A DNA stretch of 64,000 nucleotides from Promethearchaeota archaeon (GCA_019894975.1 JAGXNO010000001.1:25278-89277); one strand, 5' to 3'. Counted from the stretch's first letter, positions 3,946 through 57,564 are shown. The notes: generated from the sequence alone by a model not told the origin. Program-made: numbers and translations.

Positions 3946-4052
3946 TCTAATCGATAAATTAAATATTATTCACTTTAAGTTATCTTATTACCCAAAACTA
4001 TTAAGAATTTAGTAAAAATTTAGGAAATAAAATTAAAAGAATTACGGTGATA

Positions 4053-5072
4053 TTAAGAAAAATACTCTTGATTTAATACATTTGTTGGGGAAAATGACTT
4101 GGAAATTATAAAATTTGTATGGGATATTAATTCATCTAACACAAAATTTGTATAAGTATCTTCTATATTTTCTGAATTATATAGATCTCTAATAAAAGTT
4201 GCATAATCTTCAATATCCTTTACTCGAACTATGGCAAATAATCCATATTGTTCACCTATTCGAAATAAGTCAGTAATGTTTCGATATATATCCAATTTAA
4301 TCGCAAGATCATTGTATTTTGATGGATCTTTTGGCTTAATTCGAAGAAGATATTTTCCTTTGAAACCTATTTTCTTAGGATTAAAGTTTATTGTATAGTT
4401 TAAAATTACACCTTGTTCCTCGAGTTTTTTAATTCTGTTATGAATTGTTGATTGTGAAATTTCTATTTTAAGTTGTTCTTTAAAGATTTTACTTATCTCA
4501 TATGTAGATATTGGTTTGGCTCCTTGACCATCTCGTAATATACTCAAAATTTTATAATCTACATCGTCTATATCAAAAGAAACTGCTGAGTCTTTCATAC
4601 TAATCCCATTTGTTTTAAACACCTTAATTGTTTCAATAATTTGATATTTTTTAAAATGTGATTTAGCCATTATTTTATCAATTGTATTTAGTATCTGATA
4701 ATATTCTTCGGGGGATTTAAAGATAAATAAGGCAAATAGAGAAAAATCTCCAATTATCCCATCCAACATTCTAATCTGGGGGATTTCAAGCAATTCCTTG
4801 ACCAAATCAGGCTCTTTTGGGTTGGTTTTAATTTCAAGCATCACATATTTCAAATTATTTGGACGAATATTGGGATTAATGTTTATTGTAAAGTTTGTAA
4901 TTATTTTTTGATCTCTCATACCATCAAGTTTGTTTTGATAAGTTTGTCTAGAAAGTCCAATATCACGTGAATTTCTGGAAACAATAAATTTGGTTTTTCC
5001 GCTCATATTTTTTATGAAGCGTTGAGATTCTACTTGTTCATTAATATGTTTCATAGTATTACAATTTTGCAA
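4053..5072 (-). CDS. Tandem Lrp/AsnC-family transcriptional regulator (two HTH plus RAM modules)
   Basis: 339 aa. There are two repeats of HTH (..IGLSRQTYQNKL.. and ..ISQSTIHNRIKKLEEQGVI..), each followed by an AsnC-type ligand-binding domain. Confidence 0.7.
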   Translation of the reverse strand: MQNCNTMKHINEQVESQRFIKNMSGKTKFIVSRNSRDIGLSRQTYQNKLDGMRDQKIITNFTININPNIRPNNLKYVMLEIKTNPKEPDLVKELLEIPQIRMLDGIIGDFSLFALFIFKSPEEYYQILNTIDKIMAKSHFKKYQIIETIKVFKTNGISMKDSAVSFDIDDVDYKILSILRDGQGAKPISTYEISKIFKEQLKIEISQSTIHNRIKKLEEQGVILNYTINFNPKKIGFKGKYLLRIKPKDPSKYNDLAIKLDIYRNITDLFRIGEQYGLFAIVRVKDIEDYATFIRDLYNSENIEDTYTNFVLDELISHTNFIISKSFSPTNVLNQEYFS

Positions 5073-5191
5073 ATTTCTTAATTATTACTAATTAAATGTT
5101 AGATAAAATTTATATATATTTGCATTTGACCAAAAATAGTTTTATAAATTAATTAAACTTATTATTCTTATAAAATAAAAAGTGAAATTAA

Positions 5192-31261: not shown

Positions 31262-34200
31262 ATGGTTTTTAAAATGGAAAAATCAAATCCTCAAATAAAG
31301 CAGTATAATAAAGGAGCTTTAGATGATAAAGATGAAGTACCTCAAAAAATTAATAAATTTGAAAATTTATATCATGAATTATTCTATAATTCTTTTAGTG
31401 GAATGGCATATCATAAAATTATTTATGATTCCGACGGAAAACCAATTAACTACTTAATAAAAGCAGTGAATCCACAGTATGAATCTGTTTTATTGATTAA
31501 ACGCGAGGATATAATAAATAAGACTGCTACTAAAGCATATAATGTTGAGAAACCACCATATTTAGAGATATTTTCAAGAGTAGCAGAAACGCAAAAATCA
31601 TTCTCATTTGAGACTTATTTTCAGCCGATGAATAAATATTTTCAAATTACCGTCATCTCTTCAGAAAAAGGAGAATTTATAACGGTATTTGATGATATTT
31701 CAGAAAAAAAAAAATTAATTGAATCAGAAGAAAAATATAGGCTTATTACAGAAAATGCAAATGACTTAATTTGCATATTAAATAAGAATTATAAATTTGA
31801 ATTTATTAATGAGAAAACCTACTTAAAAGTTTTAGGCTATTCAAAAACTGATTTAATTGGAAAATCCGCACTGAAATTAAATCATCCTAAAGATTTTGAA
31901 AGTTTTGTATCTTCCTTTTGGGGCAAAGATGAAATTGATGATAGAACGGTGGAATTAAGAGTAAAGCATAAAAATGGAAAATGGATATGGTTGAATATTA
32001 ACATTCAAAGATTTAATAATGAAGAAAATGAGAAAAAGTTTTTATTAGTCTCCAGAGAGATTACCTTCAGAAAACTAGCGGAACAAAAGATTAAGGAATC
32101 TGAAGAAAAATATCGGCATTTATTTGAAGATTCTCCTTTTGCAATCGCTTTATTTAATTTTGAGGGACAGATACTCGAATGTAATTCATATGTTGAACAA
32201 TTATTGGGATTTAAAAAAGAAGAACTAACAGGAAAAGATTATAAATTATTAAATCTAGTCCCAAAAGAATATAGACCTTCGGTTTTGAACGGTTTTAAAA
32301 GATTGGTTGAAGAAGATATTCCTAATCCAAAAAGAATTCAACTATATACGAAAGAGGGGAGTTTAATATGGGTTTTACTGCACACATCATTGATTAAATT
32401 ACAAGAAATGAAATTTATACAGGTAATCGTTGAAAATATCACAGAAATGAAAAAGGCTGAAGATGCCTTACGGGAAAGTGAAGCAAGATTTCGTTTACTC
32501 ACAGAACAAAATTTATTAGCTATTTCTATTATTCAGGATAATAAAATTGTATATGCAAATCAAGCACTTGCTGATTTAAATGAATACTCAATACAGGAGA
32601 TGCTTGATTGGAAACCAAATGAACTTACCAAAGCAATATATCCCGAAGATATTCCTTTTGTATTGAGCCAATCAGAAAAAAAACAAAGAGGAGACACCCA
32701 TGATGTTATTCCACATTATTCCTACCGAAAAATAATGAAGGATGGAAGAATCAAATGGGTTGACCTTTACTCAAAAACAATACACTATAATGGAAAACCA
32801 GCAGATTTAGTATCCCAAATAGATATCACTGAACAAAAGAAAATGGAAGAAAAATTAAGAGAGTCTGAAGAAAATTATCGAGAGTTAGTAAATGATGCTA
32901 ATAGTATCATTTTAAGGTGGGATATAGAAGGAAAAATTAATTTCATCAATGAATTTGGAGAAAGCTTTTTTGGGTATTCTAAATCGGGACTTGTTGGCAA
33001 ACAGGTTATAGGAACTATCGTTCCAGAAACCGAAACTACTGGGAGAGATTTAGAAAAATTAATGGAGAATATTTGCAAATCCCCTGATATATATAAAAAT
33101 AATGTAAATGAAAATATAACTAAATATGGAAGAAGAGTATGGATATCATGGACTAATAAAGCCATTAAAGATGTCGATGGGACTTTAATTGGGATTTTGT
33201 CCGTTGGAAATGATATTACAAAACAAAGAATAGCAACATTAAGGATATCTGAATCCGAAGAGAAATTTAGAACTATAACTGAACAATCTTTTATAGGTAT
33301 TGCTATTTTACAGAATTTTAAATTTAAATATGTAAATCAACAATTCGCTGATACTCTAGGATATGAATCTAAAGAAATTTTGAAATGGAATCCTAAAGAA
33401 TTTATTGAATTTATCCATCCTGATGATCGAAAAAGGGTTATGGAAATAGCTGAAAAAAAATATTTTGGTAAAAATGAAGTGTTAGAGGATTTACAGTTTA
33501 GAATAATAAAAAAAACGGGAGAAATAATTTGGTTAGAAATTATATCTAAAACTATCCCTTTCGAAGGGGACTTAGCAGATCTAATTGCAACATCGGATAT
33601 CACTAAGAAAAAAGAAGCAGAGCAAATTATCATTGAAGAAAATAAAGCTTTATTAGAATTAAATAAAATGAGGAAAGATATTATTACACGTGTTTCTCAT
33701 GAATTAAAAACACCCTTAACTTCTATATATGGTGCGTCTCAAATTCTTCTAAAACATTTCGATGGAAAAATAGGAGATGAAGCGTTAAATTTTATCGAAA
33801 TTCTTCATAGAGGTGCCTTAAGATTAAAAAAACTGGTAGAAAACTTAATAGATGCTTCAAGGATCGAATCTGGAAAGCTTGAATTAAATTTACAAAGAAA
33901 CGATCTTGTGAAGATTACAGTAGAGTGTGTTGAGGAAATGAGATACATATTAGAAAGTCGAAAATTATCTGTAGAACTTACATATCCAAATGAACTTGAT
34001 TTTAACGTAGATAAGCTTAGGCTTCAACAAGTCATAACTAATATTTTATCTAATGCTATTAAAAATACTCCCATGGAGGGAAAAATTTACATTAGTATTA
34101 TAGATAATCATGATTTTGTTGATATTAAAATTAGGGATACTGGAATTGGTATAACTGAAAAAGAAAAAGAGCTTTTATTCGAGAAATTTGGAAAGATGGA

Positions 34201-34351
34201 AAGGTACGGAATGGATTTAGGCGTTGACATTGAAGGTTCTGGTCTAGGATTATTCATTTCAAAGGAAATTGTAGAATTACATGGGGGAGAGATAATTGTT
34301 GAATCTGAAGGCAGAAATAAGGGTTCAACCTTCACAATTAGGTTATTTTAA
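31262..34351 (+). CDS. Cytoplasmic multi-PAS sensor histidine kinase
   Basis: 1029 aa with about six PAS/PAC units, each separated by the SEEKYR linker. It has the H-box RVSHELKTPLTSI, the N-box NAIKNT, G1 DTGIGI and G2 GSGLGL. No TM segment is evident. Confidence 0.85.
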   Translation: MVFKMEKSNPQIKQYNKGALDDKDEVPQKINKFENLYHELFYNSFSGMAYHKIIYDSDGKPINYLIKAVNPQYESVLLIKREDIINKTATKAYNVEKPPYLEIFSRVAETQKSFSFETYFQPMNKYFQITVISSEKGEFITVFDDISEKKKLIESEEKYRLITENANDLICILNKNYKFEFINEKTYLKVLGYSKTDLIGKSALKLNHPKDFESFVSSFWGKDEIDDRTVELRVKHKNGKWIWLNINIQRFNNEENEKKFLLVSREITFRKLAEQKIKESEEKYRHLFEDSPFAIALFNFEGQILECNSYVEQLLGFKKEELTGKDYKLLNLVPKEYRPSVLNGFKRLVEEDIPNPKRIQLYTKEGSLIWVLLHTSLIKLQEMKFIQVIVENITEMKKAEDALRESEARFRLLTEQNLLAISIIQDNKIVYANQALADLNEYSIQEMLDWKPNELTKAIYPEDIPFVLSQSEKKQRGDTHDVIPHYSYRKIMKDGRIKWVDLYSKTIHYNGKPADLVSQIDITEQKKMEEKLRESEENYRELVNDANSIILRWDIEGKINFINEFGESFFGYSKSGLVGKQVIGTIVPETETTGRDLEKLMENICKSPDIYKNNVNENITKYGRRVWISWTNKAIKDVDGTLIGILSVGNDITKQRIATLRISESEEKFRTITEQSFIGIAILQNFKFKYVNQQFADTLGYESKEILKWNPKEFIEFIHPDDRKRVMEIAEKKYFGKNEVLEDLQFRIIKKTGEIIWLEIISKTIPFEGDLADLIATSDITKKKEAEQIIIEENKALLELNKMRKDIITRVSHELKTPLTSIYGASQILLKHFDGKIGDEALNFIEILHRGALRLKKLVENLIDASRIESGKLELNLQRNDLVKITVECVEEMRYILESRKLSVELTYPNELDFNVDKLRLQQVITNILSNAIKNTPMEGKIYISIIDNHDFVDIKIRDTGIGITEKEKELLFEKFGKMERYGMDLGVDIEGSGLGLFISKEIVELHGGEIIVESEGRNKGSTFTIRLF

Positions 34352-35200: not shown

Positions 35201-35337
35201 GCCCACATAGTGTAGCCCGGTCCAGCATTTTTTTGCTGTATTCCAGCGAAAAGCTAAATCGGGACTGTCAAGCTCTCTCCACGAAGGCGGAGCACAGAGC
35301 TCCTGCGACGCGGGTTCAAATCCCGCTGTGGGCGCCA
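35201..35337 (+). tRNA. tRNA-Asp (GUC) with two introns (about 30 nt near position 25/26-26/27; 29 nt canonical at 37/38) and a genomically encoded CCA
   Basis: The acceptor stem is GCCCACA/TGTGGGC. The D arm is GTGT-AGCCCGGTCCA-GCAT. The anticodon stem is CGGGA (35260-64) / TCCTG (35301-05). The loop is CTGTCA|C. The T arm is GCGGG-TTCAAAT-CCCGC. The 3' end is G-CCA (35334-37). The canonical intron 35271-35299 sits in a textbook BHB. Confidence 0.85.
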
Positions 35338-41565: not shown

Positions 41566-42051
41566 TTGAACGAACAATTCATAAAAGATTTATCTAGTGG
41601 GATAAATGGATTTTTAACTCACCTAGAACCAATGAAAGCAGTTGAAGGATTAACCCCAAGTACTGCAAGAAAGAAACCTTCCGATAAATATCATTCTTGT
41701 TGGGATTTATTGCATCATACTGTTTATTGGCAGGATATTTTACTAAAGAATCTTGACGGGAAATTCATTGATTGGATGACACTTGGTAATGAAGACAACT
41801 GGCCGTCTAATGAAAAATTAAGTAAGGATGAGTACTTCCTAGAACTTGTTAAAAAGTTTAAAAAAAATCTTGAAATAACTGCTAATAAGCTTGAGAATAT
41901 TGATTTGATGGAAAAAATCAAGATTGGTCCAGAACATACTCCAGACGTCACAAATTTTAGGTTAATTCTTGTTTTTCTTCAGCACACTTCTTATCATCTA
42001 GGACAAATAGTTACTACTAGAAAACTGTTAGGAGATTGGAAAGAAGAATAA
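41566..42051 (+). CDS. DinB-superfamily (four-helix-bundle, metal-binding) protein
   Basis: 161 aa with the His triad pattern ..LLHHTVYWQD.. and ..LQHTSYHLGQI... Confidence 0.6.
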   Translation: MNEQFIKDLSSGINGFLTHLEPMKAVEGLTPSTARKKPSDKYHSCWDLLHHTVYWQDILLKNLDGKFIDWMTLGNEDNWPSNEKLSKDEYFLELVKKFKKNLEITANKLENIDLMEKIKIGPEHTPDVTNFRLILVFLQHTSYHLGQIVTTRKLLGDWKEE

Positions 42052-42771: not shown

Positions 42772-44214
42772 CTAACCTAAATCAACTGCTTTATATGTCA
42801 TCATAGATTCATTGCCACGTTCTATATAGAAAAATTCGGCTTTTTCAGGTTTAAATTTTTCTTTTAAATATCGAATGACTTGTATCCCTTTCGAAAATTT
42901 ATCACATATAAAGATATCTAGGCTGATATAACCGTGCTCTGGCCAAGTATGAATTGCGGCATGGCTAGTCTGTAATGTTGCAATAGCACTATATCCATAT
43001 GGTTGATAATTATGATGATAAATGTCGAGTACTGTTAAATTTGCTAATTGCAGTGAATTTATAAATATTTTTTGAATTAACTCATTGTCTAAAAGTGATT
43101 TCTGCTTTGAAAAGTGTAACTCTCCAATAAAATGAAACCCAACAGGGAGGAACGGAGGTTTGGATCCTCTTTTTATTTCTGAGGTGTAAATTGGACCAGA
43201 AGCGAAGCTAAGTTTATATTTACTCTCGGGTTCTGCTACAGTTTGTAAGTAGTAAAGATGAGAAAATTGTCCTATAATGCTGGCTCCTTTATAATGATTG
43301 AAATCAGGGATCATTTCGGTTATTATAAATCCATGGTCTAATATTGACAATTGCAATTTTTGCATTTCATTCGGGGGTTTGTTTCCAAAACTGAGAACAC
43401 ATCTTTTACCAACTAAGAGATAATTTGTATCATTTATAGTAATATTTGATTTCAATACTTGTTTTGCTCTTTTTAGGAATAATCTTAAACCTTCATTTGT
43501 ATAAGGAGGATCCATTACAGCTACATCATATTTATTAACAATACTTTTAGGGATACTTTCTCTTAAATCGTGATGCAGAACATTAAAATTTTTTAAAGAG
43601 AGTTTGCTTGCGGAATTTGAGAGAAAATCTAAAATTCTATCGTCTATATCCACGACTGTAATTTCATTTGCTAACTTTGTCAATCCAACAGATAATGAAA
43701 TGAAATCATCATCACCTAAGAAGATAAGTCGTCTTCCTTCAATATCTCCTTTTTTTAGTAAGTACAATGTCTTTTTTAAAACTGTTGGGAAATCTGCATG
43801 AGATTGGTCGAGAGCGAACTCTGGAGATGGTCGATTTTCAAGATAGCTCTTTATTTCATTTAAATAAGAAAATTCATCAGGTAATTCTCGTAGTATACTG
43901 TCAAAGTTTTCAGGAAGAGGATCATATTCAAAATTCAAATTAAGGTTTCTCTTTACCCAATTCCTTCCTTTATCTCCAAGAAAATTCCTTTTTTCAATAA
44001 TACCGGCTTTCACCAACTCACTTCGCACTGCGGTAAGTGTAGGGATCGCTATACCTGTTTTTTGCGATACTTTCTTGTTTTTAAGAGAAGGAAATCGATA
44101 CATCGTTAGGAGTATTGATCGAACACCCTCAATACCTTCGCTTAATTGTGCTCTCTCAGCGACTAATGTAAGTATTTTCTCTATTTCTTTATTCATTGTA
44201 TAATAATTATACAT
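42772..44214 (-). CDS. Fusion protein: wHTH plus BpsA/DUF43-like aminopropyltransferase plus SpeH-type S-adenosylmethionine decarboxylase domain
   Basis: 480 aa. The middle part matches the DUF43/BpsA pattern (..LIFLGDDDFISLSVGL...ITVVDIDDRIL...HHDLRESIP...YDVAVMDPPYT..). The C-terminus (..YGYSAIATLQTSHAAIHTWPEHGYISLDIFICD..) matches the class 1 AdoMetDC core. Confidence 0.7.
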   Translation of the reverse strand: MYNYYTMNKEIEKILTLVAERAQLSEGIEGVRSILLTMYRFPSLKNKKVSQKTGIAIPTLTAVRSELVKAGIIEKRNFLGDKGRNWVKRNLNLNFEYDPLPENFDSILRELPDEFSYLNEIKSYLENRPSPEFALDQSHADFPTVLKKTLYLLKKGDIEGRRLIFLGDDDFISLSVGLTKLANEITVVDIDDRILDFLSNSASKLSLKNFNVLHHDLRESIPKSIVNKYDVAVMDPPYTNEGLRLFLKRAKQVLKSNITINDTNYLLVGKRCVLSFGNKPPNEMQKLQLSILDHGFIITEMIPDFNHYKGASIIGQFSHLYYLQTVAEPESKYKLSFASGPIYTSEIKRGSKPPFLPVGFHFIGELHFSKQKSLLDNELIQKIFINSLQLANLTVLDIYHHNYQPYGYSAIATLQTSHAAIHTWPEHGYISLDIFICDKFSKGIQVIRYLKEKFKPEKAEFFYIERGNESMMTYKAVDLG

Positions 44215-44336: not shown

Positions 44337-44765
44337 ATGGATAACAATTTAGCCCCACCTTGTGGTATGTACTGTGGAACGTGTAGAGCATACTTATTAT
44401 TAAAAAAAGATTTATTTAAGAAGAAGGGGTACAAAACTGGATGTAAGGGTTGTAGGATTCAAAATAAAAACTGTGCTCACCTTAAAAGAGATTGTCAGGC
44501 ATTGAAAAAAAATGAATTTGAATTTTGTTTCGAATGTCAAAAATTTCCTTGTCAAAGGTTAGAAAGACTTGATAATCGTTATAAAACGAAATATAATGTT
44601 AGTTTTATTAGTAATTTGAAAAGAAATAAAGAAATCGGAACCAATAATTGGCTCGAAGAACAAGTGGAACTTTATACATGCCCTGATTGTAAAGGTGAAA
44701 TTTGTGTTCATGATGCAGAGTGTTATGATTGTGGTAAGAATATCAACCAAAATAAATCAAAATAA
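44337..44765 (+). CDS. Cys-rich protein (DUF3795-like)
   Basis: 142 aa with several Cys clusters: PPCGMYCGTCRAY, GCKGC, CFECQKFPC and CPDCKGEICVHDAECYDCG. Confidence 0.5.
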   Translation: MDNNLAPPCGMYCGTCRAYLLLKKDLFKKKGYKTGCKGCRIQNKNCAHLKRDCQALKKNEFEFCFECQKFPCQRLERLDNRYKTKYNVSFISNLKRNKEIGTNNWLEEQVELYTCPDCKGEICVHDAECYDCGKNINQNKSK

Positions 44766-44788: not shown

Positions 44789-45460
44789 ATGTCAGAAGAA
44801 ATTTTAAACGAATTAAATGCAGAAGGTCTTCGATCAGTGTTTCTCAAATATACAAGAGAAGCATTTGCAAATATCCCACAGATGAATAAACCTCGTATCC
44901 TCGATATTGGATGCGGTACGGGAATGCCTACATTAGAGTTAGCGGCATTAAGTAATGGTGAAATAACAGGGATTGACATTGATCAGGGAGTTTTGGATAA
45001 ATTAAACCTTAAAATTAAGCAAGAAGGTCTTTCAAGTAGGATCAATGTGTATAATCGTTCAATATACGACACACGATTTGAAGACGAGACTTTTGACATT
45101 TTATGGGAAGAAGGAGTCATACATTTACTTGATCTCAAGAAGACATTAACAGAGTGTAATAGAGTGCTGAAAATGAATGGTTTCATGGTAACAGGTGAAG
45201 CAACTAACTGGGTAGATAGAAAGCTCAAACATTTTCCTAAATTTGGTTTTAATCTCATCAAGCAAATTTCTTGGGAAAAAGGATGTTGGTGGTCGCAATA
45301 CTATGCCCCATTGGAGGAAAAAATCAATATTTTACGTAAGAAGTATGATAATTTCGATGATGTTGAAGAAGTTAAGCGTCATTTAATGGAAATAGAGATG
45401 GTTAAAAAAGATCCCACGGGATTTGATTGTGTAACTTATATAATGCAAAAAATTAATTAG
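44789..45460 (+). CDS. Class I SAM-dependent methyltransferase
   Basis: 223 aa with motif I (ILDIGCGTGMPTLEL) and motif II (FDILWEEG). Confidence 0.75.
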   Translation: MSEEILNELNAEGLRSVFLKYTREAFANIPQMNKPRILDIGCGTGMPTLELAALSNGEITGIDIDQGVLDKLNLKIKQEGLSSRINVYNRSIYDTRFEDETFDILWEEGVIHLLDLKKTLTECNRVLKMNGFMVTGEATNWVDRKLKHFPKFGFNLIKQISWEKGCWWSQYYAPLEEKINILRKKYDNFDDVEEVKRHLMEIEMVKKDPTGFDCVTYIMQKIN

Positions 45461-45511: not shown

Positions 45512-48500
45512 ATGGAAATAGAGATTAAAGGAGCAAGAGAAAACAATTTAAAGAATATCGATGTTAAATTCAAAGACGGTTTAACTGTTGTTACTGGGAT
45601 TTCTGGATCTGGGAAATCATCTCTTGTTTTCGATACATTATATCATGAGTCAAATCGTCGATTAATAGAGTTATTCGGTTATAGTCGCAAATGGTCAAGT
45701 CAAAGATCTTCTTATAAATTAGCTCCAGCTAAAGTTGGGTCAATAACCGGATTGGGTCCAGCAGTTGCAGTTGGACAAAACCTACTAAATAGAAATCCAA
45801 ACTCTACTTTAGCTACAGCATCAGGATTACATCCTTTATTTAGGTTACTCTATGCAAGGTTTGGGGTAAGAACGTGTCATAAATGCGGTACCAATATAAC
45901 TGTCCTAACTCAGGATGAAATAATTAATTATCTTTTTAGTTTAGCTAGAGAAAAATCTGTTGTTATTTATTCTCAGCTCGTAAACAATTCTATTGGAAGC
46001 CACAAAACATTACTAAATTTTCTTTCAGAGCAATTTTCTACAGAAAATATATATATTGATGACAAAAAATGGGAAGGATTAGCTCTCAATCCAAGTAAAC
46101 CACATAAAATCTTAATAAAACTCGCTCAAATCGATAAATCAACTGCAGATGAAAATGTACAAGAAATTGTCCAAAGAAGTCAGATATTAGGTTCAAATAT
46201 ACTTCAAATAGAGGTTGGTAAAAAAATCGAGAAAATTACAAGAGTAAAATCTTGTGTAGAATGTGGTACATGGTTAAAAGATATTGAACCCAAGCACTTT
46301 TATATGTCTTGTCCGTTCTGTAAAAGAAAGGGATGCAAAGAATGTAATTTTACGGGGTTACATCCTTTAGCTTCGTCTGTATATTTTTCAGGTCAGATTA
46401 TCACCCAATTGTTAAAATATTCAGTAAAAGATGCACTAAAGCTTTTTAAAGACACTAGACTATCGATTCCTACAAATCGATTGATAACTGAAATAACAAA
46501 AAGGTTAGTCGCATTAAAAGATGTAGGCCTTGATTACTTAACACTGAACCGTTCATCTCCTACATTATCGCGAGGTGAATCACAACGAGTAAGAATCGCA
46601 CTCACTTTGATTAACCAATTAGAAGATGTTTTGCACGTACTTGATGAACCAACAATCGGTCAACATGTTACAGATATTACTAAGTTTTTACCAATTTTCC
46701 ACAAATTACCTGGACCCGTTATCTTTGTAGAGCATGATAGAATAGCAGCATCTGCGGCGAATAATGCAATTGATATAGGACCTGGCGCAGGAACGAGTGG
46801 GGGATCAATAATATTTAATGGTTCTCCTTCGGAATTATGGGAGTCAAATACACCTACAGGAGAATTCTTTAGTTTAAGAAAAAAAGTCATTGTACCAAAA
46901 TTAAGGCCAAAACCAAATCTCTTTTTAAAAATTGAAGCTGCTGATAAGCATAATCTTAAGGAAATAACTGTGGAAATCCCTTTAAATCGATTAACAGTTA
47001 TAACGGGTGTTTCAGGTTCAGGTAAGAGTACCTTAATCGAAGATGTCCTTCATGCTTCACTACATAAGAAAAAACCAATCGGTTGCGGAAAGATTAATGG
47101 ACCATCTTTAAAGTCAGTAATGGTTGATCAGAGCCCTATTGGAAAAAATCCCCGCTCAAATCCAGCTACCTATACAAAAATATCAGAAATTATAAGAAAA
47201 CTATTTTCAAAAGAAACAGGTCTTAGTGCTTCTCACTATTCATTCAATAGACCAGAAGGTGCTTGTCCTACTTGTAAGGGAATGGGTGCTCTGGAGATAA
47301 GGATGCGGTATATACCTTCATCTTGGATCTCTTGTCCAGACTGTAAACAAGCACGATTTAAGGAAAAAGTTCTAAAGAATAAAGTAGTTTTCGGTGATAA
47401 ATCATATTCTATTTCTGAATTCTATAATTTATCTGTATCTGAGATTGCTGATTTAATAGAAAATGAAAATCGTTTATCTTCTAACGATTTACAAAAGTTG
47501 AAAGAAATGTTAAAGACTCTTAAAGAGATCGGTTTAGGGTATTTATCCCTTGGACAACCAAGTCCATCTTTATCGGGAGGAGAGGCTCAACGTATTAAGT
47601 TATCAAAATACTTAGGAAAAACATCTCTAATAAATCAGATAATTATATTAGATGAACCAAGCACAGGTCTTCATCCTCAAGATTTGAAGGGATTACTAGT
47701 AATCTTAGATCGATTAGTTAGAGCAAGAGCGACAGTTATCATTGTAGAACATAATTTGGATGTCATTAAAGCAGCAGACTGGGTTATTGATCTTGGTCCT
47801 GGAGCTGGTGATGAGGGGGGTAATATAATTTACTCTGGTCCTATTGAAGGATTATTAAAATGTAAAGATTCAAAAACGGCCAAAGCTTTGAAACTCGATG
47901 AATTAATAACACCAAGTTCAAAAAGAGGGAAAAAAAAACTACTCGATAAAATCACAATCAAAAATGCCCACATTCACAATTTGAAGGGAATCGATGTTGA
48001 ATTCCCAAAAAACGCAATTAATGTAGTTACTGGTGTTTCTGGAAGTGGTAAGTCTAGTTTAGTGAGTGATGTAATCGAAGCTGAAGCCAAACGTCGCTTT
48101 TTTGAAACCTTATCCATGTATGAGCGCCAAGGGATTCGTGGGGGTCCTGAAGTACTGGTAGATGAAATATCTGGTTTAGGAGTTACTTCTCATGTTATAT
48201 CAACTAGAGCACTGCATTCACGTTTTTTCATGATAAGGAATACAATAGGAAAGGCTACAGAAATTTCCCTTCATATTGCAAATTTATTAGCGTATGTTGG
48301 AGAAATTAATTGTCCAAAATGTGGAGTTTTAATGATACATAAGACAAAGATGGTATGTGATAAATGTAATACCATCATTAAATTACCCAATCCTATTCAT
48401 TTTGATCCCGCATCATATCAAGCAGCATGTCGAAATTGCCATGGTATAGGAACTGTTAACGTCCCACAACCAGATAAGCTAATTATTAATCCGGAAAAAC

Positions 48501-50401
48501 CATTGTGTAAGGGTGCGATGCATTCCCCCGGATTTTTTCCTCAGGGATATTTATGTAAACCATACAATGGAGGATATTATGTTGTCCAAGCCCTTGCAAA
48601 ACGTTATGATTTTGATCCAGCTAGTACCCCTTGGAATGAAATGACTAAGGAGGCTCAAGACGCATTCCTATTCGGAAACGATGAACCATTGGAAATACAT
48701 TATGAGAATCGTAAAGGTGATAAACGTACCTATCAAAGTAAATTTAATGGATTTTATCATGGATGGGTAGATGAATGGGATATTGGTGGTACATACACAG
48801 ATATAAAACCATGTGAAAGTTGTAAAGGTGCTAAACTTCGACCAGAATATTTAGCTGTTACATTAAATGGTTATAATATGCATCAGTTAAGTGAACTTCC
48901 CCTAGTGGTTTTGCTAAAAGTTTTAAAAAGTATCTCCATAAAGCATGAAATTCCTGATATTGTTCATAGGAGTTATAAAACGGTCCTAGAGCGTTTGAAT
49001 TTCTTAATCAAGACAGGTCTAGGATATGTTCATTTGAATAGAATAGCAGCATCTCTTTCAGCTGGCGAAGCTCAGCGGATTAGATTAGCAGGAGTTTTAG
49101 GTAGTGGTCTTACATCTCTTACAATTGTTTTGGATGAACCCTCGAGAGGTTTACACCCTTCGGAACTTGAAGCTTTATTGGAAGCACTTGTGGAATTACG
49201 TGATATGGGGAACACCATCTTAATGGTAGAGCATGATATGCTTTTGATTAATTCAGCAGATTTTATTGTTGATATGGGACCAAAAGCTGGAATTGAGGGT
49301 GGTGAAATAGTTGCAACTGGTCCCCCGATTGAAATAAAAAAAAAGAACACTATCACCGCAAATTGGTTGGATGGGAGAAAAAAGTTCAAGTACAATGAAC
49401 AAAAAAGAACCCCAAAAAAATGGTTAAAGATATATGGTGTGAAAGAAAATAATCTTAAAGGTGAAACAATAGAGATACCTCATGGCCTTCTGGTAGGCTT
49501 ATGTGGAGTATCTGGTTCAGGCAAATCTACGCTATTGATAGATACTATTGGAAGGGCTTTAGCCCCAAAAAAACATACCACGTCAATGGCACACGAACCC
49601 ATAGAGCCAGGAAAACATGATAAAATCGAAGGTGAATTATCTCAAACAATCATCATTGACCAAACCAGAGCAAGCATAACAAGCCCAATGAACTATCTTG
49701 GTTTAAAAAAAAACTTTTTCAAAATCTTTGCTGAAAGTGAGGATGCAATATCATTAGGTTTAAGCGAAAAAGACCTTAAAAAGAGATGTACTGCATGCAA
49801 AGGATATGGGTTAAACAAGACAGATATGGGATTCTTACCAGATATTTACGACTTATGTGAAGTATGTAATGGAACTGGATATTCTATGGATGCTTGGAAA
49901 GTGAAAGTAAATGGTATATCACTTCCCGAATTAAATGAATTGACTATTGATGAGATTCATAGATTGTTTAAAGAAGAAGATTCTATTGAAAAAAAATTAA
50001 AGTTCGTTAAAGATGTTGGACTAGGATATTTAGTAATGAATCAACCTGCTTATACTCTTTCGGGTGGAGAAGTCCAGAGACTTAAAATTGCGAAAGAATT
50101 AAGTAAGAAGAGTACAAACAAAACTATGTACATTTTGGACGAACCTACAGTAGGACAGCATATGGAAGATGTTTCTCGTCTTATTAATGTTTTACAAAGG
50201 TTAGTTAAAAAAGGACATACAGTAGTCGTTATTGAACACCATCCACACCTTCTTGCTGCATGTGATTGGTTAATAGAACTCGGTCCTGGTGCAGGTGATG
50301 AGGGTGGAAGGTTAATCGCAGCTGGGACGCCTGTAATGATAGCTGAGGGGATAACACCTACAGCACCCTACATAAAAGAGGTTTTGGAGGAGATTGCATG
50401 A
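45512..50401 (+). CDS. Tandem (double-length) UvrA-like ABC ATPase with four nucleotide-binding domains
   Basis: 1629 aa. There are four Walker A motifs (GISGSGKSS, GVSGSGKST, GVSGSGKSS, GVSGSGKST). There are four signature motifs (LSRGESQR, LSGGEAQR, LSAGEAQR, LSGGEVQR). There are four Walker B motifs (LDEPTIGQH, LDEPSTGLH, LDEPSRGLH, LDEPTVGQH). Several CxxC Zn modules are present. The second UvrA unit starts near 47950. Confidence 0.8.
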   Translation: MEIEIKGARENNLKNIDVKFKDGLTVVTGISGSGKSSLVFDTLYHESNRRLIELFGYSRKWSSQRSSYKLAPAKVGSITGLGPAVAVGQNLLNRNPNSTLATASGLHPLFRLLYARFGVRTCHKCGTNITVLTQDEIINYLFSLAREKSVVIYSQLVNNSIGSHKTLLNFLSEQFSTENIYIDDKKWEGLALNPSKPHKILIKLAQIDKSTADENVQEIVQRSQILGSNILQIEVGKKIEKITRVKSCVECGTWLKDIEPKHFYMSCPFCKRKGCKECNFTGLHPLASSVYFSGQIITQLLKYSVKDALKLFKDTRLSIPTNRLITEITKRLVALKDVGLDYLTLNRSSPTLSRGESQRVRIALTLINQLEDVLHVLDEPTIGQHVTDITKFLPIFHKLPGPVIFVEHDRIAASAANNAIDIGPGAGTSGGSIIFNGSPSELWESNTPTGEFFSLRKKVIVPKLRPKPNLFLKIEAADKHNLKEITVEIPLNRLTVITGVSGSGKSTLIEDVLHASLHKKKPIGCGKINGPSLKSVMVDQSPIGKNPRSNPATYTKISEIIRKLFSKETGLSASHYSFNRPEGACPTCKGMGALEIRMRYIPSSWISCPDCKQARFKEKVLKNKVVFGDKSYSISEFYNLSVSEIADLIENENRLSSNDLQKLKEMLKTLKEIGLGYLSLGQPSPSLSGGEAQRIKLSKYLGKTSLINQIIILDEPSTGLHPQDLKGLLVILDRLVRARATVIIVEHNLDVIKAADWVIDLGPGAGDEGGNIIYSGPIEGLLKCKDSKTAKALKLDELITPSSKRGKKKLLDKITIKNAHIHNLKGIDVEFPKNAINVVTGVSGSGKSSLVSDVIEAEAKRRFFETLSMYERQGIRGGPEVLVDEISGLGVTSHVISTRALHSRFFMIRNTIGKATEISLHIANLLAYVGEINCPKCGVLMIHKTKMVCDKCNTIIKLPNPIHFDPASYQAACRNCHGIGTVNVPQPDKLIINPEKPLCKGAMHSPGFFPQGYLCKPYNGGYYVVQALAKRYDFDPASTPWNEMTKEAQDAFLFGNDEPLEIHYENRKGDKRTYQSKFNGFYHGWVDEWDIGGTYTDIKPCESCKGAKLRPEYLAVTLNGYNMHQLSELPLVVLLKVLKSISIKHEIPDIVHRSYKTVLERLNFLIKTGLGYVHLNRIAASLSAGEAQRIRLAGVLGSGLTSLTIVLDEPSRGLHPSELEALLEALVELRDMGNTILMVEHDMLLINSADFIVDMGPKAGIEGGEIVATGPPIEIKKKNTITANWLDGRKKFKYNEQKRTPKKWLKIYGVKENNLKGETIEIPHGLLVGLCGVSGSGKSTLLIDTIGRALAPKKHTTSMAHEPIEPGKHDKIEGELSQTIIIDQTRASITSPMNYLGLKKNFFKIFAESEDAISLGLSEKDLKKRCTACKGYGLNKTDMGFLPDIYDLCEVCNGTGYSMDAWKVKVNGISLPELNELTIDEIHRLFKEEDSIEKKLKFVKDVGLGYLVMNQPAYTLSGGEVQRLKIAKELSKKSTNKTMYILDEPTVGQHMEDVSRLINVLQRLVKKGHTVVVIEHHPHLLAACDWLIELGPGAGDEGGRLIAAGTPVMIAEGITPTAPYIKEVLEEIA

Positions 50402-51438
50402 CTTGGGTTCCATTATTATTAACTGATCCTTCACCTAACTTAAGATTACTTGTATTAAGTGAGTTATTACACCGTCCAGATGATGATGAGGAAGTGCAAG
50501 AATTACTTCAATTGCGTGAAAAGGACCCAATTGTTGAATCGCTCATCAAGACTCAGCTACCTGATGGTTCTTGGAGTAGTGTAGATCTTACAGGGAAAGC
50601 TTCTAGTAAAGGAAATCTACAGTCAACTTCACAGGCATTAGTGAGATTAGGATATCTTGGATATGATAAAGATCATGAAATTGTCCGAAAAGCTGCGAAC
50701 TATATTTTTTCGAAACAAAAAACCGATAATTCATGGCCAATTCCCACTACTAGAAAAGGACCATTTGAAGAAATTCGTGGATATGACATGATCCCTTTGC
50801 AAGTCGCAACACCTCTAGAAGGTTTAGCCGCTTGTGGATATTCTACTGATAAACGAGCTGAAAAGGCTTATGAGTGGTTGATGGAACAACGACTTGATGA
50901 TGGAACATGGTCTACTGGAACTGCTTCAGGTGTTTATGGAGGTGTTGGGGGTTATCGGAAAATTCCACACAGTCGCTGGGGGTGCAGATCTTCAACCATT
51001 GCTACATTAAACTGTTTAGCTTATCATCCAACAAGAAGTAAGAGTAGTATAGCAAAAAGAGCACTTGATTTAATCTTAGGATGTGAAACTAAGCAAAAAA
51101 ATTTGTTGGGGTTCGTAATTTCTCGTCTAATTGGATTGGAAGAATCAAGGGGATGGAGAACTTATTATCCTAAAATGGATGCTGCTCACATTTTAAGTCT
51201 CTGTTGGAAGATTGGTGCTTCATCAGAAGATGAGAGGATTTCAGAATTAATTGATTTTGTGAAAGATGAACAAGGTAAATATGGAATGTGGGAATGCTCA
51301 TTACACCCCCAAGCATCTAGATGGTTAACCTTTGACTTATTGCTGTCACTTTCTAATTTGAGTGAAGAAACAGATTGGTTTTCTACAGAACCTCGTACTC
51401 CTTTTCAAGAATACCCCAAAAAAATGAAGAGATTCTAA
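50398..51438 (+). CDS. Prenyltransferase / squalene-cyclase-repeat (alpha/alpha toroid) protein
   Basis: 346 aa with spaced repeats DGSWS, DNSWP, DGTWS and YGMWE, typical of terpenoid-cyclase/prenyltransferase toroids. Its ATG overlaps the UvrA-like stop (ATGA). Confidence 0.5.
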   Translation: MTWVPLLLTDPSPNLRLLVLSELLHRPDDDEEVQELLQLREKDPIVESLIKTQLPDGSWSSVDLTGKASSKGNLQSTSQALVRLGYLGYDKDHEIVRKAANYIFSKQKTDNSWPIPTTRKGPFEEIRGYDMIPLQVATPLEGLAACGYSTDKRAEKAYEWLMEQRLDDGTWSTGTASGVYGGVGGYRKIPHSRWGCRSSTIATLNCLAYHPTRSKSSIAKRALDLILGCETKQKNLLGFVISRLIGLEESRGWRTYYPKMDAAHILSLCWKIGASSEDERISELIDFVKDEQGKYGMWECSLHPQASRWLTFDLLLSLSNLSEETDWFSTEPRTPFQEYPKKMKRF

Positions 51439-53169: not shown

Positions 53170-53760
53170 TTATTTTTCTTCTTTAATTTTATTATAAAAC
53201 TCTAATATTATTTCTTGCCTATCATTTGCGATTTGTTTTGTTAGATCTAGGTGCATTAAATCTTTTAATTTCATGATTTTGCTCTCAAAGTGCTTCACTA
53301 CATTATCGAGATCACCACCTCTCTGAAGTGTAAATCCAATAGTTCTATATAGGCCAATTGCTCCGAGAGCGTCTAATTTATCAGCATCTGACAAAATTTT
53401 TGCTTCTAATGTTTTTGGTACAACATTATTTGAAAAAGAATGTGCTCTGATCATATGGATTATATTCTCCAAATCTGTTTGAGGAATTATGTATTCATAA
53501 GATTTTAAGAGGTTTAGTGCTATTTCTGCAGAATATTCGGCATGATTTTTATCATCTTTTGTGTCTTCTACGCGAATCCTGCCCACATCATGTAGATATG
53601 CTGCGATCTTTAGTAAAAATAGATTTGCTCCTAGTTTTTTTCCTATTTGGAGACAGAGATTATATACACGCTCAACATGTGGAAAACCATGGATATCATT
53701 ATCTTCAGAGTTTTCAAGGGCGTAATTCTTAACGTATGAAAGTATTTCTTCTTCTGACAT
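53170..53760 (-). CDS. HD-domain phosphohydrolase
   Basis: 196 aa with ..HGFPHVERV.. and ..YLHDVGR.. (the H...HD motif). Confidence 0.75.
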   Translation of the reverse strand: MSEEEILSYVKNYALENSEDNDIHGFPHVERVYNLCLQIGKKLGANLFLLKIAAYLHDVGRIRVEDTKDDKNHAEYSAEIALNLLKSYEYIIPQTDLENIIHMIRAHSFSNNVVPKTLEAKILSDADKLDALGAIGLYRTIGFTLQRGGDLDNVVKHFESKIMKLKDLMHLDLTKQIANDRQEIILEFYNKIKEEK

Positions 53761-53802: not shown

Positions 53803-54771
53803 TTAAAATCTAGGAAATCCCCATCTCTTTAATGGCCCAAACCCTTCTTCTTTGGAAATTACTATATTAGATTTTTTATCAAAAACAACTGAAATATAAT
53901 AGGCGTTTTTTCTTGATAATGCTTCGCATAAAATGAGAATAGTATTGATTTTATCTCGATTTTCTTGAAAGAACGGGATAATATAATCCCATTTATGAAA
54001 GAACCTAAAATCTTTACTCAATTCTTTTGCTCTATCAAAAAGTTTCATGTTACTTGAATTCTTTACAATAGTATTTGTCAAGAGTTTTTTTTTTCTTAGT
54101 GTAAATAGAGAACTTTTACTTATTGTGAAATTTACTTTATCAATGGTAGATTCGTTTTCATAAATAAAATAAAAGAAAGGAATAAAATTAGGAAGATAAT
54201 GGGAGTTCTTAGGTAATATTAATTGTACTATAATTCTTAAAAGGATCCTCACCCCAAAGTAGATTAGATAAGAATATAAATAGAAGTAAGCAAGTGCCAT
54301 AAAGAATTCATAATACGGTTTCGTAAAAAAACTTACAATAAGAGTTGCTATGTTGATCCCTGAAAATAAAATTAGTAAAGGGTTGATTGTTCTGTCAATG
54401 ATAAACCTAAATTCTTTTTTAGTAATTGGATAAAATATGGGTACTTTTGAGGCCGTTAGGAAATCTAATGTTACGTGAATACTATAGCCTATAAAAGCCG
54501 CTAACCATACTTCGAGGAATGAAAAATTTCCTATTATTGAAACAAGAAAACTAATAATTCCGGTAAATAAAAGACCAATAATATAGGAATGAGAAGCGGC
54601 CTTATGGGATAAGAAATAACTTTTTTTTAATCTCCGCAATGGTTCTAAAAACACATCAAAATCAGGAAGAAAGGTCATTATCCAAAGAAGTATTATTGCT
54701 GCCGGACTAAAGATTTTCAGTGTGAATAATCCAACTAATATACCCATAAATTGATGTGTAAAAATATCCAT
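53803..54771 (-). CDS. Membrane-bound metal-dependent hydrolase (YdjM/DUF457-like) with a C-terminal soluble extension
   Basis: 322 aa. The N-terminus MDIFTHQFMG and the spacing of later His residues within TM helices resemble DUF457. Confidence 0.5.
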   Translation of the reverse strand: MDIFTHQFMGILVGLFTLKIFSPAAIILLWIMTFLPDFDVFLEPLRRLKKSYFLSHKAASHSYIIGLLFTGIISFLVSIIGNFSFLEVWLAAFIGYSIHVTLDFLTASKVPIFYPITKKEFRFIIDRTINPLLILFSGINIATLIVSFFTKPYYEFFMALAYFYLYSYLIYFGVRILLRIIVQLILPKNSHYLPNFIPFFYFIYENESTIDKVNFTISKSSLFTLRKKKLLTNTIVKNSSNMKLFDRAKELSKDFRFFHKWDYIIPFFQENRDKINTILILCEALSRKNAYYISVVFDKKSNIVISKEEGFGPLKRWGFPRF

Positions 54772-55997: not shown

Positions 55998-57017
55998 TTA
56001 TTGTGATTTCCAAAAACCTCGTTTACTAAGCAATCGTCCTAAATATACAACTGAAAGCATGACTGGAACTTCCCAAAATAATCCCATGGTTGTACCTAAC
56101 GCTGCAATAGTATTATTCATAGCAATAGCAGTAGCTATAGCAATCTCAAAATGGCTAGAGGAACCGATTATTACTGTAATGATTGCCTCCCTGTATTTCA
56201 TCTTAAATATTTTTGTCATTAGTATATTATAGCCCACAACTATGACAAATCCTACTAGAAGTGGAATTGTAACTATTAATAAGTAATCCGGATGATCTAA
56301 GAGGGCCGTACCATTCATAGAAAAAAGGATTATTAATGTTGCTAGAAGCGCGATAATGGAAATCTTCCCAAGAAATGGGCGATAAGTGTCGGTGAACCAT
56401 TCTTCTCCTTTAGAAGAAATCAGAACTTTCTTACTAGTTAACCCCACTATTAATGGAAGACCAATGAAGAAAAATAGCGAAATCAATAACAACACCCAAT
56501 CAAGGGAAATATTTTGTATTCCTGTCAAAAATGTAACAATAGGAATATATAAAAAGATGATGGTAATCGTATTTAAGCTGGTATTAACTACATTTTGCTC
56601 TTGGTTTCCTTTCGCCATCCAACCCCACACTAAAACCATTGCTGTGCAAGGAGAACTAGAAAGTAATATAATTGCAAGGATTAAGTCATCATTCCCTTGT
56701 AAAAATATTCGTGCCATAAGCAATCCGATGAAGGGGGCCACAATCCAATTTGAAATAAGGGTTAGGATTATTGGTTTAGGATTTTTACCCAATTTTTTCA
56801 ATTCAGATGCCTTAAGGTTTAACATTGCAGGATACATCATTAGAAACAAACAAATTCCAATTGGTACTGAAATTCCCCCAATCTTTAGAGCGTTAAGAGC
56901 GTCACTAATACCAGGTATGATTTGGGAAATGAGAACACCAATAAGTATACATAATAAGACCCAAAGCGGTAAAAACTTTTCAAAAAAGCTGATTGTTCTT
57001 CCTTCTTCTTCACTCAT
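55998..57017 (-). CDS. acr3: Arsenite efflux permease, ACR3 family
   Basis: 339 aa with 10 TM helices, the start ..FEKFLPLWVL.. and the conserved SSSPCTAMV motif. Confidence 0.85.
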   Translation of the reverse strand: MSEEEGRTISFFEKFLPLWVLLCILIGVLISQIIPGISDALNALKIGGISVPIGICLFLMMYPAMLNLKASELKKLGKNPKPIILTLISNWIVAPFIGLLMARIFLQGNDDLILAIILLSSSPCTAMVLVWGWMAKGNQEQNVVNTSLNTITIIFLYIPIVTFLTGIQNISLDWVLLLISLFFFIGLPLIVGLTSKKVLISSKGEEWFTDTYRPFLGKISIIALLATLIILFSMNGTALLDHPDYLLIVTIPLLVGFVIVVGYNILMTKIFKMKYREAIITVIIGSSSHFEIAIATAIAMNNTIAALGTTMGLFWEVPVMLSVVYLGRLLSKRGFWKSQ

Positions 57018-57075
57018 ATTATTTAAATCCTTCTCTTATACCAATATATGAAATTTAATTGATTCTTAAATAAGA

Positions 57076-57099
57076 AAATTTTTATCCAAATAAAAATTT
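57076..57099. promoter_or_regulatory. Perfect 10-bp inverted repeat in the divergent acr3/arsR intergenic region (candidate operator)
   Basis: AAATTTTTAT-CCAA-ATAAAAATTT at 57076-57099. It is made only of A/T apart from the spacer, so a chance match is possible. Confidence 0.3.
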
Positions 57100-57177
57100 A
57101 TTGATTTGAATAAGTTTTTATAAATCTGCTTATCTTTAATAATTATTAGACATTGAGAATCTGAAGTGGTGTTATAA

Positions 57178-57564
57178 ATGGATCCTGATCATAAAAAAGA
57201 AATTTTGGATAAATTGATTAAATGTGAAGATATAAATAATCCAGATCTTCATTTCAAACAATTGCGTGAATTAGGTAATCACTTAATTCAAAATCCTAGT
57301 TTTGATGACTTAATTAAATTTGTAAACGCTGTTGCAAATAGAAAACGCCTAATAATTATTAATACATTAAAAGAGAAGGATCGATGTGTCTGTGAATTAG
57401 AAGCTGTTTTAGACGAGTCCCAACCGGCCATATCACATCATTTAAAAATACTTGAAAATGCTGGATTGATTAGAGGATGGAAAAAAGGTAAGTTTACACA
57501 TTATGACATTGTTAAAGAACAAATTATCTCATATATGGATATTTTAAATCAAAAATTAATATAA
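57178..57564 (+). CDS. arsR: ArsR-family metalloregulator
   Basis: 128 aa with the CVCEL metal site followed by ..SQPAISHHLKILENAGLI.. (wHTH). Confidence 0.85.
   Translation: MDPDHKKEILDKLIKCEDINNPDLHFKQLRELGNHLIQNPSFDDLIKFVNAVANRKRLIIINTLKEKDRCVCELEAVLDESQPAISHHLKILENAGLIRGWKKGKFTHYDIVKEQIISYMDILNQKLI

Follow-up and report, generated by a model that had tools for sequence, protein, structure and literature searches.

Decades of work on UvrA have dealt with it as a symmetric homodimer. What, then, might a UvrA-family protein do when two of its units are encoded head to tail in one chain, and when its gene runs directly into that of a barrel protein of the terpene-cyclase type? The question is raised by a 64,000-nucleotide stretch of DNA from a Promethearchaeota archaeon (GCA_019894975.1, JAGXNO010000001.1:25278-89277), here called the window, in which a tandem UvrA of 1629 amino acids is followed by a toroid protein of 346 residues. 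An initial annotation had taken the pair for a self-contained DNA-scanning, adduct-handling or resistance module. Following comparison with related loci, the module is classified here as a damage sensor of the UvrA family in which both the fixed asymmetry and the obligate partner are new.

Two UvrA units with complementary domains

Each half of the chain matches solved UvrA structures with E values of 1e-149 to 1e-164. Four full sets of Walker A, signature, Walker B and H-loop motifs are present and are invariant in 16 family members, as are all of the Zn-ligand Cys pairs in the same 16-member alignment, which bears out the first reading of this single open reading frame (ORF) as a double UvrA with four nucleotide-binding domains. 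Homologues that match over the full length, with identities of 55-100%, occur in Asgard archaea, Bathyarchaeia and Chloroflexota. The N-unit and the C-unit are 34% identical to one another, and either is 34-38% identical to E. coli UvrA. Given that the units differ from one another as much as from the E. coli protein, the fusion is either ancient or was made from two paralogues that had already diverged. The protein exceeds the cut-offs of the UvrA models NF001503 (1318.8 bits against 1147) and TIGR00630 (1304.3 against 729.8), with scores that are summed over four stretches and two units.

The UvrB-binding domain of E. coli UvrA spans residues 131-248 and its insertion domain residues 290-400 (PMC3025350). 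By phmmer, residues 2-281 of the N-unit align unbroken to residues 3-285 of T. maritima UvrA, the UvrB-binding domain included, and the alignment passes from query residue 264 to chain residue 373, such that the insertion domain is skipped. On E. coli UvrA, the N-unit covers 3-271 and then 400-937. The UvrA residues between the Zn2 ligands are passed over in the N-unit alignments, and the Cys pairs of the resulting knuckle are invariant in the family. Because the UvrB-interaction family PF17760 scores only 17.4 bits on the N-unit, under its cut-off of 23.3, the region was modelled. The AlphaFold2 (AF2) model of residues 118-262, built from a 36-sequence family alignment, has a mean confidence (pLDDT) of 92.7. 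In Foldseek it fits onto UvrA as found in the complexes with UvrB and with Mfd D2, with template-modelling (TM) scores of TMq 0.80 to UvrA from the UvrA-UvrB complex (3uwx_A), TMt 0.81 to the isolated UvrB-interaction domain (3fpn_A) and TMt 0.76 to the UvrA/Mfd core complex (4dfc_B). Given these three matches, the model shows that the UvrB/Mfd-docking fold is retained in the N-unit.

This docking domain and the linker between the units are the least conserved segments of the protein in the 16-member alignment. In E. coli UvrA, R216 and E222 are what we take to be a contact pair for UvrB and Mfd; the positions that align to them are variable in the family and mostly Gln in a phmmer pairwise alignment of under 20% identity. 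Compared with the UvrA of the UvrB and Mfd complexes, the N-unit does not conserve these positions, and its co-encoded partner is an alpha/alpha barrel. The barrel bears no likeness to UvrB domain 2 or Mfd D2, both of which are small and rich in beta structure. An R216/E222 mutant of E. coli UvrA features in the repair assays of one study (PMC3025350).

The C-unit has the opposite layout. Its residues 1-131 align to 26-152 of C. thermocellum UvrA, and its residues 127-812 to 263-960 (phmmer), while a single end-to-end stretch aligns it to D. radiodurans UvrA2 (2vf7). The insertion domain, matched by PF17755, is among the most conserved segments of the tandem protein and carries the family-specific motif GAMxSPGFFPxGYLCKPxNGGYY. 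The profile check of the two halves called for by the initial annotation thus finds PF17755 on the C-unit and, on the N-unit, a sub-threshold PF17760 match whose docking fold was recovered by the model. The two UvrA units are complementary in domain content. With B for a UvrB-binding domain and I for an insertion domain, each mapped on E. coli UvrA, and a bar between the units, the architecture is written B-|-I.

Class II UvrA proteins are single units and, to our knowledge, homodimers, and no toroid partner is known to have been described for any of them. They are defined by loss of the UvrB-binding domain (and Zn1) and retention of the insertion domain, and one of them, the UvrA paralogue Ecm16, acts on drug-bound DNA independently of UvrB and UvrC (PMC9328131). 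The C-unit shares the layout of this class (D. radiodurans UvrA2, 2VF7; DrrC; Ecm16, 7SH1), whereas the N-unit has kept the docking domain and lost the insertion domain. The initial annotation had proposed domain loss of the class II kind in both units. Loss of one domain from each unit and the class II layout of the C-unit were borne out, but the docking fold of the N-unit was not foreseen, and a class II assignment for both halves is ruled out by the N-unit alignment, the model of residues 118-262 and the Foldseek matches.

Class I UvrA, the homodimer of UvrABC nucleotide excision repair (NER; 2R6F, 3PIH, 3UWX, 9GXK), resembles each unit in its two ABC modules, its Zn modules and its Zn3 hairpin region. 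The class requires both accessory domains in one unit, and the tandem protein has the insertion domain matched in the C-unit only and the UvrB-binding fold in the N-unit only, which places it outside. Whereas class I UvrA is a single chain of ~940 residues that forms a homodimer, the window protein joins two non-identical units in one chain of 1629 residues, has each accessory domain once per pseudo-dimer, is coupled to the toroid and lacks linkage to uvrB or uvrC. A head-to-tail duplication is shared with the 1809-position model NF001885 (PRK00635), presumably the chlamydial-type tandem UvrA, but the window protein reaches only 844.5 bits there against a cut-off of 3054.

The toroid and its coupling to UvrA

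The UvrA/toroid junction reads ...GAG ATT GCA TGA, such that the toroid ATG lies at 50398-50400, with GGAGGAG 6 nt upstream. Both ORFs and their overlap are as first annotated (Table 1). Given this translational coupling, the toroid is expected to be made in about 1:1 amounts with the tandem UvrA.

One genome per species was scanned with the toroid alignment. Relatives were found in 152 genomes, and 80 loci were retained: 37 from Asgard archaea, 10 from Bathyarchaeia, 4 from unclassified archaea, 26 from Chloroflexota and 3 from other bacteria. Where more than 5.2 kb of upstream DNA is available, the N-unit and then the C-unit lie directly upstream of the toroid in 57 of 58 loci. In the 58th (L056) the tandem UvrA is also upstream, cut only by a 100-N scaffold gap. 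The pairing first noticed in one genome is thus strongly conserved, at 58 of 58 loci and in three main lineages, and the toroid is an obligate partner of the B-|-I UvrA. The neighbourhoods of homologues with 82%, 60%, 57% and 56% identity each hold a toroid of 344-346 residues that overlaps the UvrA stop by 4 nt, and the other neighbours differ. The NTGA overlap and, upstream of the toroid start, a GGAG-type motif (usually TGGAGG) are each kept by 73 of 79 loci, in archaea and bacteria alike. Two loci (L051, L060) carry an insertion of 1.4-2.3 kb between UvrA and toroid. The identities of toroid and UvrA rise and fall together (r = 0.96-0.97 overall, 0.77 among loci below 70% identity), and the distribution of the module, as read from these sequences, suggests horizontal exchange between sediment archaea and Chloroflexota.

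The same loci bear on the fusion itself. An open frame of 1629 codons has, by our estimate, a chance of ~e^-130 in DNA of 30% GC, and a chance origin is excluded. An intact tandem UvrA frame of 1609-1689 residues, with the same 4-nt overlap, is present in ~55 loci, and the frame across the inter-unit linker is continuous in each of these genomes. A missed stop or an assembly join near 47950 had been raised as a way in which the halves could be separate genes; both are ruled out, because the same uninterrupted fusion recurs in ~55 independent genomes. Split ORFs occur in five loci (L017, L054, L061, L084, L085), where the uvrA-unit matches run contiguously across the breaks. The splits are read as frameshifts, mostly in metagenome-assembled genomes (MAGs) from long reads (L054, L061, L084, L085).

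The toroid is matched by PF13243 (E 4.9e-11; 42.7 bits against a cut-off of 26.1) and also by PF13249. Its DGSW-type repeats, correctly taken at the outset for those of an alpha/alpha toroid, match the QW repeats (Q..DGSW) of squalene cyclases, and the family profile matches SHC at 1e-17. The AF2 model is an all-helical barrel (pLDDT 80.8, predicted TM score 0.85). Its best Foldseek matches, which are to SHC, MstE, drimenyl-PP synthase and complement TED, are weak, with TM ~0.45 and identities of 12-17%. A homologue search returned 1723 proteins at E<=1e-5, and the best 120 of those listed are of 291-357 residues, nearly all 340-348. Compared with class II terpene cyclases (2SQC; MstE, 6SBB; drimenyl-PP synthase), the toroid shares the alpha/alpha barrel and the QW-like repeats. 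However, SHC has two barrels (beta-gamma) in ~630 residues while the toroid is a single domain without a conserved DxDD, and the context of the toroid is a DNA-repair ATPase rather than isoprenoid genes. The thioester domains of complement and alpha-2-macroglobulin show a distant likeness of fold, but the toroid family lacks their CGEQ motif. Scores against NCBIfam cyclase models are 19-31 bits, where cut-offs are 322-851. No match to a known nuclease or glycosylase family was found with Pfam, NCBIfam, Foldseek, PADLOC or the family profile. No prenyltransferase alpha-subunit gene was seen near the module in the neighbourhoods of four homologues, and no isoprenoid genes lie near it in the related loci.

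Conservation of the toroid is high, with a mean column identity of 69% in the family alignment. When relatives of 35-45% identity, taken from UvrA clusters at 43-47%, are added, 36 residues remain invariant, among them Y129, P133, Q135, W160, D168, W171, Y186, R187, S192, G195, C196, R197, T200, H210, R243 and D261. Seven of these (Y186, R187, S192, G195, C196, R197, T200) fall in the loop of residues 176-200, part of which is modelled with low confidence. Conserved yet modelled with low confidence, this loop and the C-terminal tail look like elements that would take on order only when a partner or ligand is bound, and the tail is a candidate docking peptide. A metal site formed by H191, C196, C206 and H210 was considered and judged unlikely as a single site, given that C196 and C206 lie 10 residues apart on one predicted helix.

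Two UvrA units in one chain are not in themselves unusual. Representatives of 50%-identity clusters were searched with residues 430-1629 of the tandem UvrA, and among the best 150 matches (P0241-P0390) ~130 are tandem UvrAs, of 1567-2343 residues. The architectures among these 150 include BI|B- (44), -I|-I (33), BI|BI (25), B-|-I (10, with the window protein counted) and rarer types. Tandem UvrA is therefore a common, largely unstudied theme; literature searches found almost nothing on tandem UvrAs with four nucleotide-binding domains. What is specific to the window module is the complementary B-|-I layout together with the toroid. In each of the five B-|-I clusters examined, the lowest identity among them being 43%, a toroid gene lies 3' of the UvrA with a 4-nt overlap, while none follows the four tandem UvrAs of types -I|-I, BI|B-, BI|BI and B-|BI that were looked up.

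A different partner was seen in one of the other tandem UvrAs. P0258, of 1828 residues and type B-|BI (L096 4001-11226, JGI metagenome 3300036861), overlaps by 4 nt the start of a 580-residue XPB/ERCC3-like helicase (ResIII, ERCC3_RAD25_C, Helicase_C_3), which is followed in turn by a second Helicase_C_3 protein. This locus couples a bacterial-type damage sensor to a helicase of the eukaryotic and archaeal NER type. By analogy, the parallel suggests that the gene downstream of a tandem UvrA may encode its working partner.

The combination of tandem UvrA and toroid appears to be new. In full-text literature searches, neither a tandem UvrA paired with a toroid nor the architecture of Asgard UvrA turned up in any paper. 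In PADLOC-DB 2.0 the toroid has no match and the UvrA has only generic ABC-domain matches, so no catalogued system is matched by both. In sequence databases the two proteins go by the names 'excinuclease ABC subunit A', 'ATP-binding cassette domain-containing protein' and 'prenyltransferase/squalene oxidase repeat-containing protein'.

Table 1. Features of the module and of the two genes upstream of it, in window coordinates
Feature	Position	Strand	Description and basis
DUF3795 Cys-rich gene	44337-44765	+	Pfam; 23-nt gap to methyltransferase
S-adenosylmethionine (SAM) methyltransferase	44789-45460	+	Pfam; 51-nt gap to UvrA
Tandem (double) UvrA gene	45512..50401	+	ATG start, 1629 aa, four ABC nucleotide-binding sites
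N-unit, residues 1-813	45512..47950	+	UvrB-binding-fold domain kept, insertion domain lost (architecture B-)
Zn1 module and UvrB/Mfd-docking-fold domain, residues 118-262	45863..46297	+	AF2 model, Foldseek
Zn2 'knuckle' CPFCKRKGCKEC, residues 267-278	46310..46345	+	No insertion domain between Cys pairs; sequence
Lys/Ser/Pro-rich linker, about residues 782-814	47855..47953	+	Joins units; mean identity 0.38, family alignment
C-unit, residues 814-1629	47951..50398	+	UvrB-binding domain lost, insertion domain kept (architecture -I)
Insertion (DNA-binding) domain, residues 987-1081	48470..48754	+	PF17755, E 9.4e-11 to 5.5e-12
Translational-coupling signal	50386..50401	+	GGAGGAG 50386-50392, ATGA stop/start overlap 50398-50401
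Toroid partner	50398..51438	+	346 aa, single (alpha/alpha)-barrel, terpene-cyclase/prenyltransferase repeat superfamily
Toroid loop SGVYGGVGGYRKIPHSRWGCRSSTI, residues 176-200	50923..50997	+	Highly conserved; residues 176-194 of low model confidence
Toroid C-terminal tail TPFQEYPKKMKRF, residues 334-346	51397..51435	+	Conserved, modelled disordered; terminal R345 invariant

Neighbouring genes and genomic setting

Searches by tblastn with E. coli UvrB and UvrC (E<=1e-3) found no homologue of either in the 64-kb window, in agreement with the first inspection, and no uvrB or uvrC was found by tblastn within 10 kb in 85 related loci that total 1.34 Mb. The DUF3795 gene and the methyltransferase upstream of the UvrA were also placed correctly, with their short gaps, but they have no conserved place in the module: DUF3795 is present in 16 and the methyltransferase in 19 of ~83 loci, all of them Asgard, and both are absent from the Bathyarchaeota and other loci. 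They were therefore rejected as module members. Proteins with BtrH_N/DUF4872 and with a glyoxalase fold are likewise limited to 16-19 Asgard loci.

Some lineages carry further genes close to the module. In three Asgard loci an extra single UvrA of 836-851 residues and class-II-like type lies between the methyltransferase and the tandem UvrA (L001 7388-9943, L002 4160-6670, L025 ~2612-5104). It has an insertion domain and no UvrB-binding domain, and is absent from the window. Genes of stress or xenobiotic type lie near the module, downstream of the toroid, in L001, L002, L024 and ~15 other Asgard loci; they encode PadR, BtrH_N/DUF4872, a glyoxalase/bleomycin-resistance fold, FUR, and catalase or peroxiredoxin, and in L024 the glyoxalase/bleomycin-resistance fold gene is directly 3' of the toroid. 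In the GC-poor locus L091, AraC and Cass2, the latter presumably a GyrI-like fold, are found immediately upstream (4432-4863). A Promethearchaeota MAG has an actin-family gene 6.5 kb downstream of the module (L002 18112-19113), which fits an Asgard origin.

The window itself is AT-rich, with ~30% GC. The closest homologues are named Promethearchaeota, Hodarchaeales, Thorarchaeota or Hermodarchaeota, all of them Asgard archaea. An Rfam tRNA match of 33.9 bits and 134 nt at 35201-35334 (+), for which ARAGORN makes no call, is probably an intron-containing archaeal tRNA, and given this putative long-intron tRNA and the names of the closest homologues, the window is taken to be archaeal. A 480-residue protein (42772-44214, minus strand) combines an N-terminal winged-helix region with a BpsA_C branched-chain polyamine synthase domain fused to an S-adenosylmethionine decarboxylase domain; L001, the locus of 82% identity, has this fusion at the corresponding place. 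The surroundings of the module further include a DinB-superfamily protein (41566-42051), an HD-domain protein (53170-53760), a YdjM-family membrane protein (53803-54771) and, at 55998-57564, an SBF/ACR3-type transporter (-) that adjoins an ArsR-family regulator (+). A 1029-residue ORF lies at 31262-34351 (+). Antisense ORFs of 90-125 residues run along the minus strand across the UvrA gene region and in related loci (e.g., window 49072-49395 and 44983-45261). They were judged not to be genes, given that their clustering across loci only reflects the conserved sense gene.

Possible function and significance

We favor, at a probability of roughly 0.4, a reading in which the asymmetric tandem UvrA and the toroid form a conserved two-gene unit for handling lesions, adducts or genotoxins without need of UvrB or UvrC. 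The two UvrA units would fold back on one another as a covalent, asymmetric equivalent of the UvrA homodimer, which the poorly conserved linker of ~30 residues would allow. Such a pseudo-dimer would have four working ATPase sites, two Zn3 damage-sensing hairpins, one insertion domain to clamp DNA and one docking domain. It would scan double-stranded DNA with ATP, lock onto distortions as the UvrA homodimer does, and place a barrel protein, bound 1:1, at the lesion. The conserved loop of the barrel (GYRR..SRWGCR) and its cavity might then bind or process a lesion, an adduct or an intercalated hydrophobic compound. By analogy with the class II protein Ecm16, we lean to genotoxin or adduct handling that bypasses UvrB and UvrC. 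Suggestive of this reading are the exclusive coupling to the toroid, the lack of linkage to uvrB and uvrC, the non-conservation at the R216/E222 positions, the xenobiotic-type neighbors and the parallel with the XPB-coupled tandem UvrA. In a more specific form, the fused UvrA heterodimer of Asgard archaea, Bathyarchaeia and Chloroflexota would hand its lesion not to UvrB but to a terpene-cyclase-fold protein that serves as a catalytic or lesion-capturing effector, and the two proteins would make up a so far unrecognized pathway of DNA repair or genotoxin resistance, which we consider unlikely.

Several points weigh against the proposed two-gene unit. In ordinary genomes, too, uvrA often lies apart from uvrB and uvrC, and the absence of these genes nearby is therefore weak evidence. 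The xenobiotic-type neighbors are lineage-specific and absent from the window itself. The comparison at R216/E222 depends on an alignment of under 20% identity, the Foldseek matches of the toroid reach a TM of only ~0.45, and no recognized catalytic motif is seen, as a conserved DxDD is absent and the PDDDEE at toroid residues 27-32 varies in the family. Binding between the two proteins, pairing of the units within one chain, the role of the barrel and independence from UvrB and UvrC are all things that we infer. Finally, the retained and confidently modelled docking domain would most simply mean continued binding of UvrB, and a 2026 review holds that Asgards seem to have adopted UvrABC (PMC12993045).

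These last two points lead to an alternative that we rate as somewhat unlikely, in which the tandem UvrA is the front end of classical NER. One UvrB would be loaded via the docking domain and UvrC would make the incisions, with the toroid as an accessory factor for specificity or regulation, and the tandem protein could even be the main UvrA of Asgards. The docking fold of the N-unit is modelled with high confidence, and the domain persists throughout the B-|-I clade. Since the other unit has shed domains that lacked a function, this persistence points to a function; UvrB-binding domains are found in many other tandem UvrAs, and the NCBIfam equivalog cut-off for UvrA is exceeded. The initial preference for a module other than classical NER goes beyond the data, given that the retained docking fold would allow a hand-off to UvrB. 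On the other hand, uvrB and uvrC are absent from the window and the 10-kb surroundings of the related loci, the docking domain is the least conserved, falls under the Pfam threshold and does not keep the R216/E222 positions, and the obligatory toroid is left unexplained. Chloroflexota should already have a canonical UvrA, and if so the module is an extra system there.

The opposite alternative, that the toroid replaces UvrB and UvrC as a catalytic effector, a new kind of lesion-processing enzyme (e.g., a glycosylase, lyase or thiol-dependent dealkylase that uses C196, H210 and acidic residues), would make the pair a two-protein excision pathway in which the tandem UvrA delivers the toroid to bulky adducts or cross-links. 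Most barrel proteins in this superfamily are enzymes, the coupling suggests a 1:1 ratio, the XPB-coupled tandem UvrA offers a parallel, and the strong conservation of the toroid takes in C196, R197, H210, D168, D261, Y129 and W160. However, the lack of a match to any nuclease or glycosylase family searched, and a most conserved loop that is modelled as disordered and could equally serve for interaction or for catalysis, make this improbable. Anti-phage or anti-plasmid defence, with the UvrA-like ATPase as a sensor of foreign DNA, was rejected as very improbable. The patchy spread over distant phyla does suggest horizontal transfer, and PADLOC reports mad3 and mad8 of the MADS system on the ABC domains (377 and 177 bits), but these matches, in 5-6 stretches, are of the kind that any ABC domain would give. 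The toroid has no PADLOC match and no relative in 2.9 million viral contigs, there is no nuclease or other effector domain, and the neighbors are housekeeping and stress genes rather than defence islands. Artefact or coincidence, in which mis-assembly or a missed stop joins a pair of uvrA genes and an isoprenoid enzyme with no relation to them happens to lie downstream as the toroid, would draw on the split ORFs of a few related loci. Since those are frameshifts or an N-gap, the intact frame and 4-nt overlap recur in ~55 independent genomes, and the toroid never occurs without the tandem UvrA where upstream DNA is available and has no isoprenoid genes nearby, we regard this as negligible.

Asgard archaea are the closest known prokaryotic relatives of eukaryotes. 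For an obligate partner with a terpene-cyclase fold, found in at least 152 species-level genomes, many of them Asgard, no precedent in DNA repair was found. The division of labor between UvrA protomers is still debated, as is whether the damage sensor is UvrA2B2 or UvrA2B1 (PMC7835731). A natural asymmetric UvrA, with one docking domain, one insertion domain and four ATPase sites, is a ready-made construct for dissecting the roles of the protomers, and if the toroid is indeed the effector, the fusion would show directly which protomer needs which accessory domain. The current database names of both proteins are uninformative under either reading: a toroid that acts as an effector or ligand trap would mean a new pathway of repair or resistance, and one that serves as an accessory factor in NER would be a new NER subunit.

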